Source: a virus. Taken from it: 30,012 bases of DNA. The position numbers and the translations under genes are program-made. The notes beneath the pieces are model-generated. The model was not told where the DNA came from and did not search any database. It saw nothing but the letters and a program-made list of their open reading frames with translations. This document shows positions 9,940 to 14,663 of the stretch, piece after piece. Positions within the stretch are counted from its first letter, which is position 1. Each line of letters starts with the position of its first letter. Location of the stretch: the UHGV virus genome UHGV-0120925; one strand, given 5' to 3'.

Positions 9940-12900
9940 TTAAACCCCCTTGATTAAACGCCACAGAGGCGATCCAGGCATGCTGGCCTGTTCATTAATG
10001 ACGCCAGTGATGGCATCCTTAAGCTGCCAGCCTGCTGCTCCGGCAGTACCCTGACTGGACGCCTGTGGAGATCCGCCCTGAATATTGATATCGCCGAAGT
10101 TAACTGAAGGCACGCCGCCAGAGACCTGCGGAGTACCAACTGCCCTAACGCCAAGCGAACCGTCAGCTGCCCGCGTGAGTGGCATAATGGCTTCCGGTCC
10201 TGCCTCGGCAAAAACCCCTGCGCCTTTGGCAAAAGCAAACAGCTGAGGCGTCTGGAAAACGCCATTGCTGAAAGCGCTCAGGGACGGAGAGTCGTAAACA
10301 TTACCCTTCGCATTAAAGGTGAAGTTCGCCCCAGCATTCTGAATAGCGGTACCGCTGCTGGCGGTAGCGGATGACGAAGCCCCAAAACTGAACAGTGAAC
10401 CAATTGAGCTAACGCCATTAGCAACAGCCATATTCACCAGCACGTTCTGGATAATCTTCAGTACGCTGACGCCCCAGTCCTTCCAGCTGTCAACGTTGCC
10501 ATTGAGCATGTCGGTGATCGTGGTGACCGCGCCCCCCATAGCCTGCTTCATGCCGTCAGCGGCCATGGAAGAATAGTCAGTAGCTTCGTCCACCCAGTTC
10601 GCATAACCCTCAGACAGTCCCGTCATCCAGTCGTCACGCTGCGCATCAGAAGCTGCGTAATATCCCTCCTGGTCGCGCAGACGCTCCTCGAGATAGCGCT
10701 TATTAAGTGCCAGTCCCTGCTGATAGAACGTCTCGTCGATTTCACCAGCCTGACGCTGGCGGAGAAGATCGGTATTCTTTTGCTCGAACTCCTTACGCAG
10801 ATTGAACTGCTCCTGAAGTCTTTCACGGAACCTGGAGCCCTGCCCGTAGCCCAGCAGTTGCGCTTCATTGGCTGCGCGGGCGCTGGCGTTACTGTCAGCA
10901 AGGTTGGCTTCGTAATTTCGCAGTTGCTCACGTAATTTAACCTGGTCAATCAGCGCAGCATTCTGCAATACCGTCTTTTTCTGGGCTTCTGTCAGAGAAG
11001 CAAGTTCGCCCTGACTAACCTGGTATTTAACCTTCGCCAGTTCAGTATTCTGGCCTTGCAGGGCAATCTGCTCTTTTTGCTGTTTGATCAGCTTGTCATA
11101 GGCATCAGCTGTTTTTTCCGCCTCGGATTTCCCGCCCTTATGGCGGCTTGAGTCACGAATAGCTTGCAACTGCCTGGCTGACTCAACTTCCATGCTGACA
11201 TACTTCTCACGCCAACCAGCAGGGAGATTAAGGTCAGATGCATCGAATTCCGCCTGCTTGCGGGTTTTGTCCAATCCCTTAAGACCGGACAACTCAAGCT
11301 GTCGCTGCGCCTTGTCTATAGCTTGCTGCTGCTTATTATCAAGTGCAGGAAGTACAGGCCCTGCATATTTTGGTGGGGACACTGCTGTAGACTGTCTGGA
11401 AACCTTGTTCAGACGGTCATACATCTCTGTAAGATAACTTACGGCGCCAGCCATTTCTACTGTTTTATTTATAGCCTGATCAGTTATGTCGTTTATTAAC
11501 TGTTGTGTTTGCTTTCTTTTATTGAGCATTTGCTCAAGTCGGCCTTCTTCAACCGCAAGTTCTGAAGCAAACTCTGCTGATTTCTCAACCGCATCGTTAT
11601 ACAGCCATGTTCCATCTGAAGCAGAATTGGCTGCTAATTTTGCGTTATAAAGTTGATTGGATAATTCAGCAACTTTCTGCTTCTGCTGTTCAATCGCACT
11701 ATTTTGAGCATCCAGTGAAATATTCGCCTGTCCAAGGTTGGCGGATATCTGCGTCTGAGACATTGATTTCAGATTATCTCGTACCTGCTCGATTGTGTCC
11801 GCATATTGGATTGCAGATTCCCTGGCTTGTTCTTGGCGTTGATACATCGTGTACCACGCCCCAGCACCCAACATTAAAATTCCTGGCAAACCACCAACTA
11901 ACGACAAAAGCCCCGTAGCGCCAGACTTGAATAAATTCATTACCGATGTTGATCGGTTGAGTGCTTCTTGCGACGCTGATACTGCTTTATTTGACTGAAC
12001 GAGAGTGGCATTGGCGGCTATCATTTCACGCCGTTTGGCAATAGAATTTTGTGTAGCTGTCGCTTCTGCATTTGTGTTTTTTGCAAGTTCCAACTCGGAT
12101 AGCGAGAGCTGATAAGCACGCTCGGCAGCAATCGCATCTGCTGCCGCCTTTCGTTGTGATTGGGTAGCAGATTCAGCCCTTGCAGATGCGAGCGCAATTT
12201 CGTTCTTTCTGGCATCTATTAATTGCGCCGTTTGGTTCCCAAGATCGCCAAACATCCCTCCAAGATAGCGAGCTCCACCTATTGCAGCCAAAGCTCCGGC
12301 AGCCGTAGCCACAGTGTCGATATTGTCAGAAACTGTATTCAATACAGCAACAAGAGCACTTGTCGCACCAGTAGCTTCATTAGCTCCACCTACCCATGCC
12401 ATGAAAGCATTTTCGACTTTCGTCGTGGCAGCAGAAACGGTCTGCGGCATTGCCTCAAATTCACCACGCATAGTGCCAAGTTGACTTATCAGGGCCGGGA
12501 CAACTTTATCTGCGGTTAGCATCCCCTGATCGGCCATTGCCTTCAGATCTTTACGAGCTACACCCATCCCAGCGGCCAGCGCACGGATAACTCGATCACC
12601 GTTTTCGTTAACAGAGTTGAATTCCTCGCCCCGCAGAACGCCCTGAGCTAATGCCTGACTAAACTGGGTGATAACAGAACTTGCCTCTGCCGTGCTGGCG
12701 CCGGATAGCTTTAGTCCAGTAGAAATGGCCTCGGTTACATCCAGAACTTGCTGCGAACTGTATCCGTATTCACGCATTGATGCGGCGGAACGCGCAAAAA
12801 GACTCGCATTATCAGAGAAGGCGGTTCCGGTTCGTTGGCTAATATCCATCAGCGCCCGCTGAGACTCCGTGAAATCATCAGACGATTGGGAAGCCTGCTT

Positions 12901-13206
12901 TAGCCTGGCATTAACAGAGCTCCATTCATCGGCCAGCGATATAAGATGACCAGTCGCAAATACTCCAGCAAATGCACCTGCCATTCCCAGCGCTGAGGCC
13001 TTCGCGGTGTTTATTTGACTAGTTACCTCAGCTAAGGCACGCTGAGTTTCACGCGAAGCTGCGGCCGCTTGGCGTCCTCCAGTCTGCATTACCCGGTAAT
13101 AGTCATTCCCCATTCTTGAAGCACGAGAAATTTCAGACTGAAATGACTGAGAGTTTGCAGATATTTTGATGATCAGTTCGCGCAACGTAGCCATATTTTC
13201 ACCCAT
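9940..13206 (-). CDS. H: Tail tape measure protein
   Basis: 1088 aa, coiled-coil and Ala/Gln-rich, at the position of lambda H between T and M. Start could be ATG 13206 or 13194. Confidence 0.9.
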   Translation of the reverse strand: MGENMATLRELIIKISANSQSFQSEISRASRMGNDYYRVMQTGGRQAAAASRETQRALAEVTSQINTAKASALGMAGAFAGVFATGHLISLADEWSSVNARLKQASQSSDDFTESQRALMDISQRTGTAFSDNASLFARSAASMREYGYSSQQVLDVTEAISTGLKLSGASTAEASSVITQFSQALAQGVLRGEEFNSVNENGDRVIRALAAGMGVARKDLKAMADQGMLTADKVVPALISQLGTMRGEFEAMPQTVSAATTKVENAFMAWVGGANEATGATSALVAVLNTVSDNIDTVATAAGALAAIGGARYLGGMFGDLGNQTAQLIDARKNEIALASARAESATQSQRKAAADAIAAERAYQLSLSELELAKNTNAEATATQNSIAKRREMIAANATLVQSNKAVSASQEALNRSTSVMNLFKSGATGLLSLVGGLPGILMLGAGAWYTMYQRQEQARESAIQYADTIEQVRDNLKSMSQTQISANLGQANISLDAQNSAIEQQKQKVAELSNQLYNAKLAANSASDGTWLYNDAVEKSAEFASELAVEEGRLEQMLNKRKQTQQLINDITDQAINKTVEMAGAVSYLTEMYDRLNKVSRQSTAVSPPKYAGPVLPALDNKQQQAIDKAQRQLELSGLKGLDKTRKQAEFDASDLNLPAGWREKYVSMEVESARQLQAIRDSSRHKGGKSEAEKTADAYDKLIKQQKEQIALQGQNTELAKVKYQVSQGELASLTEAQKKTVLQNAALIDQVKLREQLRNYEANLADSNASARAANEAQLLGYGQGSRFRERLQEQFNLRKEFEQKNTDLLRQRQAGEIDETFYQQGLALNKRYLEERLRDQEGYYAASDAQRDDWMTGLSEGYANWVDEATDYSSMAADGMKQAMGGAVTTITDMLNGNVDSWKDWGVSVLKIIQNVLVNMAVANGVSSIGSLFSFGASSSATASSGTAIQNAGANFTFNAKGNVYDSPSLSAFSNGVFQTPQLFAFAKGAGVFAEAGPEAIMPLTRAADGSLGVRAVGTPQVSGGVPSVNFGDINIQGGSPQASSQGTAGAAGWQLKDAITGVINEQASMPGSPLWRLIKGV

Positions 13207-13236
13207 AAAAAAACCCGCTTGATAGCGGGTCGTGAG
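13207..13236 (-). terminator. Intrinsic terminator immediately upstream of the tape-measure start
   Basis: On the minus strand ACCCGC-UAUCAA-GCGGGU is followed by seven U residues and then the ATG of the tape-measure gene. Confidence 0.55.
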
Positions 13237-13425
13237 TTATAAACTGTCTTTTCTTTTGTGAGCGACTTGTATTAATAAATCTATTTGCGCATCTTGTTTT
13301 TTATTTATCTCTTTAAGGGCTTCAACTTGTTCATTTGCCCTTGTGCTAAACCGTATTAAATAAAAAATCACAATTAGATTTATCAACCAGCCGAATATTC
13401 CAAACACTACTACCAGTGGTTCCAT
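13237..13425 (-). CDS. Small single-pass membrane protein (moron between T and tape measure)
   Basis: Strong RBS AAGGAGG 4 nt before ATG 13425. 62 aa with one hydrophobic helix (PLVVVFGIFGWLINLIVIFYLI) and a charged tail. Lambda has no gene at this position. Confidence 0.6.
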   Translation of the reverse strand: MEPLVVVFGIFGWLINLIVIFYLIRFSTRANEQVEALKEINKKQDAQIDLLIQVAHKRKDSL

Positions 13426-13482: not shown

Positions 13483-13761
13483 TTATTGTGTCGCAGCTGT
13501 AAGAGCAGCCTCAAGCCCTGCAAACGGGTCCTTCGGTTCTGATTGCTCATCGCCACCCCATCGCAGGATCGCATCGTCCAGCGGTACTTTTGCCCCCTGC
13601 GAACCGTAGATGGCAGAGACGAGCTGGGCTGCCTGAATGTCGCCACGGATATCGCCAACCGGACTTTGCCTGTCGAACTCAATCCACATCAGAAGCTCGC
13701 TTGCCGTCATATTCTGCCGAAGCTCTGAGAGCGTGCGCCCCATCCGGAGCGCAAGCGACAT
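13483..13761 (-). CDS. T: Tail assembly protein T region, expected to be made as a G-T fusion by -1 frameshift
   Basis: Sequence ...LRMGRTLSEL...ELLMWIEFD...GDIRGDIQAAQLVSAIY... matches the phage tail T family. The frame is open upstream to 13821, overlapping the end of G. Confidence 0.8.
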   Translation of the reverse strand: MSLALRMGRTLSELRQNMTASELLMWIEFDRQSPVGDIRGDIQAAQLVSAIYGSQGAKVPLDDAILRWGGDEQSEPKDPFAGLEAALTAATQ

Positions 13762-13769
13762 CAGAAACT

Positions 13770-14153
13770 TTACCCCGGGGGTTGAGACTTTTCCCGCGCT
13801 TCGTCCGCATTGTTGATCAGGTCAAGCGCCTGTTTGAGCAGACGTGAGTGCACGGGCCCGTAAATTTCACGCACCTGCTCTTCTTCGTCTACGCTGAATA
13901 CCGGTTGCTTATCGGTGTCACACAGAACGTCAATGAAGAGCACCACGTCAGCGCAAAGATTACGGTGCGCCTTTTCCGATACCGACACATTTTCATCGTC
14001 GGCCCCCCCTTTCACCACTTCCTGCCAGCGCAGCCAGGCTTCACCTGACGGCTCACGGAGAACCACTTTGACGCCTTCCCACTCAGGAACGGCGACCGTC
14101 TTATGACGAAATCCCGACATCTTAGCCAGGGCGAGATTTTTAATATTCTTCAT
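13770..14153 (-). CDS. G: Tail assembly chaperone G
   Basis: Position directly after the tail tube gene, RBS GAGAGG, acidic protein, followed by the overlapping -1 frame T ORF. Confidence 0.8.
   Translation of the reverse strand: MKNIKNLALAKMSGFRHKTVAVPEWEGVKVVLREPSGEAWLRWQEVVKGGADDENVSVSEKAHRNLCADVVLFIDVLCDTDKQPVFSVDEEEQVREIYGPVHSRLLKQALDLINNADEAREKSQPPG
13788..13795 (-). other. Candidate programmed -1 ribosomal frameshift site GGGAAAAG
   Basis: On the minus strand the G frame reads CGG GAA AAG, six codons before the G stop. A -1 slip of the Lys tRNA from AAG to AAA enters the T frame (predicted junction ...AREK/VSTPGVKFLMSLALR...). Resembles the lambda GGGAAAG site but with one extra A. 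Confidence 0.45.
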
Positions 14154-14161
14154 GAGACCTC

Positions 14162-14605
14162 TCAGGAGCCAGACTCGATGTTTTCAGGCTTACCTTTCAG
14201 GCGCAGGGAGAACGTTGCCGCCACTACGCCGTTGGTACCGGAAGACCAGGTGTGCTGGCGGATTTCAGCCAGGAACTTAAAGCCCTTGCCGGACGGGAAG
14301 ATAACCTGGAACGCGTAGGTCGTATCGTTGTCATACGCTTCACGCAAGGCGTCCTGCGCCTGATTCTTGTAGAAGTTGCCGGACAGAGAGATTTCTGACG
14401 GAGAAGACAGGCCGTTGATGTTCTCCTGCTCGGTAGAGCAAAGTGTTGTTACGTCGATATCCTGCTTCTGACCACCGGTGAACTGAATTTCTTTGATGGT
14501 GCAACTCAGATCGAGGAAGGTTGCTGAATCCATCGTTTCTTTGGTGGCTGGCAGGGAGGAAATAAGGATCTTCGTCAGCTGCGATTTTTCATAAAGTGCA
14601 GACAT
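14162..14605 (-). CDS. Major tail (tube) protein
   Basis: 147 aa at the position of lambda V between the tail terminator and G. RBS AGGAGA. Hairpin directly upstream. Confidence 0.7.
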   Translation of the reverse strand: MSALYEKSQLTKILISSLPATKETMDSATFLDLSCTIKEIQFTGGQKQDIDVTTLCSTEQENINGLSSPSEISLSGNFYKNQAQDALREAYDNDTTYAFQVIFPSGKGFKFLAEIRQHTWSSGTNGVVAATFSLRLKGKPENIESGS

Positions 14606-14611
14606 ATCTGT

Positions 14612-14645
14612 CTCCTGGAAAAAGAAAACCCGCCATTAGCGGGCT
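14612..14645 (-). terminator. Terminator-like hairpin between the tail terminator gene and the tail tube gene
   Basis: On the minus strand AGCCCGC-UAAUG-GCGGGUU (one G-U pair) is followed by UUCUUUUU and then the tail tube RBS. Confidence 0.45.
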
Positions 14646-14663
14646 CGTTGGGTGAATTAATTG

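Follow-up and report, generated by a model that had tools for sequence, protein, structure and literature searches.

The window, by which is meant the whole 30,012-nucleotide stretch of DNA analyzed here, very probably carries the HK97-type gp13/gp14 −1 frameshift, in which a slip at the codons GAA AAG makes a minor 223-aa GT protein. The shift heptamer, G_GAA_AAG, lies at 13788..13794 on the minus strand, and its codon register puts GAA (Glu) in the P site and AAG (Lys) in the A site. The site is an ordinary one that was already known, because it is the annotated frameshift site of HK97 gp13/gp14. That this particular phage frameshifts, and at what rate, is inferred. A survey of the family adds a small but clear point: A_AAG in register appears to be required, and the P-site codon drifts among AAA, GGA, GAA, GCA, and GTA. 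Current understanding of frameshifting or of tail assembly is unchanged by these results.

Organization of the tail gene block

The tail block is encoded on the minus strand in the HK97-type order of major tail protein, G, T, a small moron, and tape measure protein. The gene for the major tail (tail tube) protein, identified from the ORF list and Pfam, occupies 14162..14605 (minus strand) and lies directly 5' of G. The G gene (13770..14153, minus strand, from the ORF list and its translation) encodes a tail assembly chaperone of 127 aa, which is the zero-frame product and a homologue of HK97 gp13. Its protein ends in ...NNADEAREKSQPPG (...AREKSQPPG*), with the TAA stop at 13772..13770, and it matches Pfam family PF06222 (Phage_TAC_1) with E=5.5e-60. 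The T frame, a homologue of HK97 gp14, is in frame −1 relative to G and matches PF06223 (Phage_tail_T) with E=8.9e-20. The ATG of the T ORF is at 13761, and the frame is open from 13821, exactly 20 codons 5' of this ATG. A TGA in the −1 frame at 13822..13824 (minus strand) sets the upstream limit of the window in which a shift can occur. As read from the translation, the −1 frame part of the GT fusion covers 13483..13788 (minus strand) and ends at the stop 13485..13483. The predicted fusion of 223 aa continues from the G part through the linker VSTPGVKFLM into the T domain.

The locus therefore looks like a lambda-type G/GT pair in its layout. Two overlapping ORFs lie between the major tail and tape measure genes, their products are homologous by Pfam to known G and T families, and the second ORF is in frame −1, is open across the end of G, and has no conserved start signal of its own. 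The tape measure gene (9940..13206, minus strand, 1088 aa; Pfam TMP_3, Phage_HK97_TLTM, and Tape_meas_lam_C) follows 3' of T. Between T and the tape measure gene there is a membrane-like ORF of 62 aa (13237..13425, minus strand), which shares 95% identity with gp15 of HK97, a 'moron product', and has a YebO-like Pfam match (E=8e-9). Hairpin prediction places a terminator-like hairpin 3' of this ORF, just before the tape measure start (13231..13212, minus strand). A second terminator-like hairpin, just 5' of the major tail protein gene (14626..14646, minus strand), is the counterpart of the putative terminator between HK97 genes 11 and 12. For the putative terminator that separates HK97 genes 12 and 13, no counterpart was found at the matching place in the window. 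The major tail protein of the window is itself short. Its 147 aa match HK97 gp12 (234 aa) only over the first 145 residues, at 92% identity, and the ~89 residues at the C-terminus of gp12 are missing.

The shift site and its counterpart in HK97

The sequence GGGAAAAG at 13795..13788 reads CGG GAA AAG TCT in the zero frame and GCG GGA AAA GTC in the −1 frame. An earlier note on this DNA had proposed that T is read in the −1 frame, which stays open over the 20 codons ahead of the T ATG and overlaps the end of G, and that the zero-frame codons at GGGAAAAG are GAA AAG rather than GGA AAG. Reading of the ORFs and of the codon register bore out both points. The note had also described GGGAAAAG as a variant of the lambda slippery sequence, which holds in that the two differ by one base when aligned on AAG, and in that relatives of the window carry G_GGA_AAG or A_AAA_AAG. 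The feature is real, and it lies where the note placed it. The site does not follow the strict X_XXY_YYZ pattern, because the first triplet, GGA, of G_GAA_AAG is not homogeneous. It does carry A_AAG: GAA AAG is in frame, and an A precedes the A-site AAG, so that tRNA-Lys is cognate on AAA after the slip. The run of four A residues is well under the lengths associated with transcriptional slippage. A text search of the literature for the shift motif returned only unrelated primer matches.

Translation with a −1 shift at the Lys codon gives the junction ...AREK|VSTPGVKFLMS.... Evidence that this is the junction comes from HK97. The region of the window is ~94% identical in nucleotide sequence to HK97 and its relatives (HK106, mEp234, HK446, HK75, and others), and the gene order is the same as that of HK97 genes 13 and 14 (AF069529 / NC_002167). 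The HK97 record lists gene 13 as a 'tail assembly chaperone' and gene 14 as a join of two pieces that is 'translated due to a -1 frameshift', and it places a terminator after gene 15, the 'moron product'. The same gp15 moron and the same terminators are found between T and the tape measure gene in the window. The HK97 sequences CGGGAAAAGTC and ...GCGCGGGAAAAGTCTCAACCCCCGG... are identical to those of the window and are in the same register. HK97 gp14 was built with three alternative junctions, and each construct was looked up by exact sequence. Only the AREK|VSTPGVKF construct was found, as AAF31104.1/NP_037707.1 together with the HK446 copy; constructs with the alternative junctions were absent. 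In other words, the deposited HK97 gp14 uses exactly the junction AREK-VSTPGVK that the earlier note had predicted, and the HK97 reference record places the frameshift at exactly this codon.

The G proteins of the window and HK97 differ at both ends. The N-terminus is MKNIKNLALAK in the window and MSQTLKQLAMAK in HK97. The last residue is Gly in the window and Ala in HK97, a change that creates a second heptamer, C_CCG_GGG, in the window.

Conservation of A_AAG among relatives

A first scan of IMG/VR returned only loci that were 98-99% identical and were uninformative on selection. A scan of genome_contigs with an alignment of G homologues, using one genome per species, recovered 73 loci whose G is 39-98% identical to that of the window. 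An intact T ORF in the −1 frame, about 100-145 aa long, was present in 70 of these loci and in the window (71 in total), and these comprise 69 distinct sequences in 25 clusters at 70% identity. All 69 distinct loci have an in-frame NNA_AAG in the G/T overlap, at the Lys aligned with the K of AREK in the window, so that the conserved shift-prone motif of a lambda-type G/GT pair is present as well. The most common form is A_AAA_AAG (42 loci), followed by A/G_GCA_AAG (10), G_GAA_AAG (9), G_GGA_AAG (5), A_GAA_AAG (2), and G_GTA_AAG (1).

Such codon pairs are rare by chance. Elsewhere in the G genes, in-frame NNA_AAG accounts for 50 of 7531 codon pairs (0.66%), AAG for 32% of Lys codons, and A for 19% of third positions. 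Eight loci have an overlap of just 7 nt between the opening of the −1 frame and the G stop, which leaves a single codon pair and no alternative site, and that pair is NNA_AAG in 8/8. The −1 peptide K-V-x-x-P-G-x-x-F-L-M, which is encoded 5' of the T ATG, is also conserved across the family. Because A_AAG is invariant while the P-site codon varies, the conserved determinant is A_AAG in register. It thus appears that A_AAG in register, read by tRNA-Lys, is the essential element and that the P-site codon is free to drift.

GAA as the P-site codon occurs in four separate clusters. The heptamer of the window, G_GAA_AAG, is that of the HK97 clade and recurs in two other loci (L101/L111) whose neighbors have G_GCA_AAG. 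Within the HK97 clade (70-98% identity) it is fixed, and its flanks vary synonymously (GCG/GCA, CGG/CAG, TCT/TCG, and CAA/CTA).

The loci with N_GCA_AAG or G_GTA_AAG (L104-L106, L116-L120, L131, L138, and L149) have poor re-pairing in the −1 P site, and in one of them (L117) the overlap is only 7 nt, which leaves no alternative site. These relatives appear, from their sequences, to be natural G-T shift sites that use A_AAG only. A further difference among relatives concerns the end of G. The G stop lies directly 3' of AAG in 42/69 distinct loci (A_AAA_AAG_TAA/TAG; loci L091-L156), and five more codons are read after AAG before the G stop in the HK97 clade. Where the stop follows directly, tRNA-Lys could slip in the P site during the pause of the ribosome at the stop codon.

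Mechanism of slippage and comparison with known sites

How would ribosomes make both G and GT? Most ribosomes translating G would stop at the TAA at 13772..13770 and release the 127-aa chaperone. A minority would slip back by one base with GAA and AAG (13793..13788) in the P and A sites, and tRNA-Lys, which carries mnm5s2U34 and is the only Lys tRNA in enterobacteria, would move from AAG to the better-matched AAA. Translation would then resume in the −1 frame (GTC...) to give the 223-aa G-T fusion, ...AREK|VSTPGVKFLM.... The analogy with lambda gpG/gpGT suggests that binding of the tape measure protein falls to the G part and recruitment of the major tail protein to the T part, with the G:GT ratio set by the low shift rate. 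A_AAG is shifty in E. coli and its relatives because their single tRNA-Lys pairs better with AAA than with AAG (PMC5009743), and of all tetramers it is by far the one that shifts best in E. coli (PMC4066793).

The earlier note had held that the sequence implies a slip of a single tRNA (Lys) over a tandem slip. This does not follow, because tRNA-Glu can re-pair on GGA after the −1 shift through G:C, G·U, and A:U, that is, two Watson-Crick pairs and a central G·U. The same re-pairing, from GAA to GGA, is described at GGGGGAA sites of mycobacteriophages (PMC10885494), and heptamers with an imperfect first triplet, for example X_XX = G_GA, are listed as known intermediates (PMC5009743). A near-cognate tandem slip at G_GAA_AAG, re-pairing by tRNA-Lys alone, and P-site slippage of tRNA-Lys ahead of the decoding of the next codon (UCU) are all possible. 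The single-tRNA idea is plausible, in that A_AAG is invariant and relatives have poorly re-pairing GCA and GTA codons, but the sequence does not imply it. The GCA and GTA codons indicate that good P-site re-pairing is dispensable in this chaperone family. All of these routes give Lys and then Val, so that peptide sequencing or mass spectrometry cannot separate a single from a tandem slip. The same point, that peptide identity cannot tell slip routes apart, has been made for dnaX (PMC5009743).

The window resembles the lambda G/G-T system in position, in that the site lies between the major tail and tape measure genes and the shift occurs a few codons before the G stop. Both sites have AAG as the A-site codon, read by tRNA-Lys, and both T domains belong to PF06223. 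The assignment to Phage_TAC_1 applies to G of the window. The lambda heptamer G_GGA_AAG and the G_GAA_AAG of the window are one base apart when aligned on AAG, and the difference falls in the P-site codon. Lambda has GGA (Gly) with cognate re-pairing, whereas the window has GAA (Glu), whose re-pairing is near-cognate with a central G·U. Neither lambda nor the window has an obvious stimulator. Lambda-type tail assembly requires ~3% shifting, and low-level shifting in lambda gives a G:GT ratio of about 30:1.

Other natural NNA_AAG sites include B. subtilis cdd (A_CGA_AAG) and IS1222 (G_CGA_AAG) (PMC5009743). There, as is predicted for the window, the shift rests on movement of tRNA-Lys from AAG to AAA, and the P-site codon lacks perfect re-pairing; G_GAA_AAG keeps more potential for P-site pairing than CGA or GCA. 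The relatives with N_GCA_AAG and G_GTA_AAG belong clearly to this class of sites. However, cdd/IS1222-type sites generally need a pseudoknot, hairpin, or SD for above-background shifting in reporters, and none was found in the window. The E. coli dnaX site, A_AAA_AAG, has the same A-site codon and the same dependence on tRNA-Lys as the window, and most relatives of the window's G use exactly this dnaX-type heptamer. In dnaX an upstream SD-like element and a downstream hairpin accompany ~50% shifting, but neither element is conserved in the family of the window.

Stimulators and shift efficiency

The flanking stimulators expected of an NNA_AAG site, which are a structure at 5-9 nt or an SD-like element, were not found in the window. 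The 98 nt after the shift site fold no better than shuffled sequences (z −0.30). In a family scan of 50 nt starting 5 nt after the heptamer, the mean z was −0.45 and no structure was conserved, including at the 5-9 nt spacing downstream of the shift site. The upstream SD-like element scores −3.2 kcal/mol in the window, and only 6/69 loci reach −6 or better.

There is a local RNA hairpin further downstream (13722..13766, minus strand), in the LMSLALRMGRTLSE codons, with a fold of −22.5 kcal/mol and z −3.2. Its start is 21 nt downstream of G_GAA_AAG and 6 nt downstream of C_CCG_GGG. The HK97 clade has in G_GAA_AAG a weakened heptamer, and its hairpin, 21 nt downstream, is unusually stable. As a conserved stimulator this hairpin was rejected, because across the family 58% of cells were paired compared with 41-52% in slid controls and there were no compensatory changes. 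The hairpin is for the most part specific to the HK97 clade and to the LALRMGRT codons.

What level of shifting might be expected? A_AAG alone, and even G_GGA_AAG alone, gives ~0.15-0.3% shifting in reporters without stimulators (PMC4066793). GGGAAAG in E. coli, for example, gives 0.28% without stimulators, 3.8% with IS911 stimulators, and 43% with the IS3 pseudoknot (PMC4066793). Two genes of a tail chaperone cluster similar to an HK97 protein showed 6-7% frameshifting in an E. coli reporter (PMC3711429), which lends indirect support to the making of both G and a minor G-T fusion. Because no stimulator was found and isolated motifs give 0.15-0.3%, the shift efficiency in the window could be low. 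Alternatively, the family may have a stimulator that escaped recognition, such as a long-spacer hairpin, the nascent C-terminal peptide of G, or the stop after AAG. The reasons to consider it are that relatives with N_GCA_AAG lack P-site re-pairing altogether and that there is a gap between the 0.15-0.3% given by the motifs alone and both the ~3% needed for lambda-type assembly and the 6-7% of the HK97-like genes; we regard it as unlikely.

Other routes to a T-containing protein

In the first alternative to a frameshift at GAA AAG, no shift occurs and T is made alone from its ATG at 13761 as a protein of 92 aa. The ATG is present, and many RefSeq records carry the 'phage tail assembly protein T / DUF4035' as a protein of its own with 92 aa. 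Furthermore, the GGGG allele of the window forms an SD-like duplex of −6.3 kcal/mol located 11 nt 5' of the T ATG, comparable to the −6.4 of the SD of G itself. However, the family does not share this signal: the mean SD score before the T ATG is −0.8 kcal/mol, and −6 is reached in 1/69 loci, which is the window itself. The −1 peptide KVxxPGxxF upstream of the T ATG is conserved, which indicates that it is translated, and the −1 frame is open back to A_AAG in every locus, in several by exactly 7 nt. In lambda, T sequences are reportedly made only as gpGT. Independent initiation is unlikely as the designed route to T, and the reading in which T is made solely in this way is very improbable.

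The allele itself is a rare one. A G at 13774 (C in HK97) makes both C_CCG_GGG and the SD-like GGGG (13773..13776) before the T ATG, and the duplex of −6.3 kcal/mol compares with −1.7 in HK97-type alleles. This GGGG allele might permit some free T protein in this phage, and C_CCG_GGG together with the SD-like GGGG might provide a second route to a T-containing protein.

A second alternative is a shift at C_CCG_GGG (13773..13779, minus strand), which would give the junction ...SQPPG|VKFLM.... The earlier note had called GGGAAAAG the only slippery candidate, a claim that is wrong but harmless, since C_CCG_GGG (13779..13773) lies in the same overlap and in register. It is a formally perfect X_XXY_YYZ heptamer just before the G stop, with CCG GGG in the zero frame and TAA directly after, and the stable hairpin (−22.5 kcal/mol, z −3.2) that starts 6 nt 3' of it might aid the shift. 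However, the heptamer results from a single base change, and HK97, mEp234, and 77 close relatives read CCG GCG TAA. Among the IMG/VR loci just two have CCG GGG in common with the window, C_CCG_GGG is absent from all more distant relatives, and the junction of the deposited HK97 gp14 lies elsewhere. In a systematic study of all 64 heptamers in E. coli, in which backgrounds were 0.04-0.07%, the frameshifting measured on CCCGGGG was 0.053% in the absence of stimulators, 0.055% when the IS911 stimulators were present, and 0.41% when the strong IS3 pseudoknot was present (PMC4066793). C_CCG_GGG was rejected as the shift site because it is not conserved and its published efficiency is near background. 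It is judged non-functional or negligible, and a shift there is even less probable than the sole use of the T ATG.

The least credible alternative, and one that hardly merits belief, is RNA polymerase slippage on the A run, in which an A added to or deleted from some transcripts would let standard translation produce GT: some relatives have 7-9 A at the shift site (for example ACC AAA AAA AAG in L091) and in reporter work cited in PMC3711429 efficiency climbed with A-run length from 7 to 11, but the 4 A of GGGAAAAG fall well below the lengths tied to transcriptional slippage (PMC3711429), and what is conserved is the codon register (an in-frame A_AAG, always AAG and never AAA) rather than run length, which argues for a ribosomal and not a polymerase mechanism.

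Consequences for annotation

The relevance of a frameshift at GAA AAG is mainly one of annotation. Automatic pipelines give G and a separate 92-aa 'T/DUF4035', and the fusion is missed. Motif finders restricted to X_XXY_YYZ would overlook roughly one site in three in this chaperone family, and in the window such a finder would choose the wrong site, C_CCG_GGG.

Two observations were made on deposited proteins. In a protein collection, the exact 127-aa G of the window is placed in a 90% cluster in which the other members listed are 252-aa 'phage minor tail protein L', which looks like a clustering artefact of that collection. A few short metagenome contigs encode contiguous G+T fusion proteins (P0001, P0003, P0004, and P0037). 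They come from short single contigs and are probably not natural fusions but indels in the A run that arose as sequencing or assembly errors. They were left out of the evidence, apart from the observation that one of them, P0004, joins the two frames just where the shift is predicted (...GEVKK|VALPGMRFLM).
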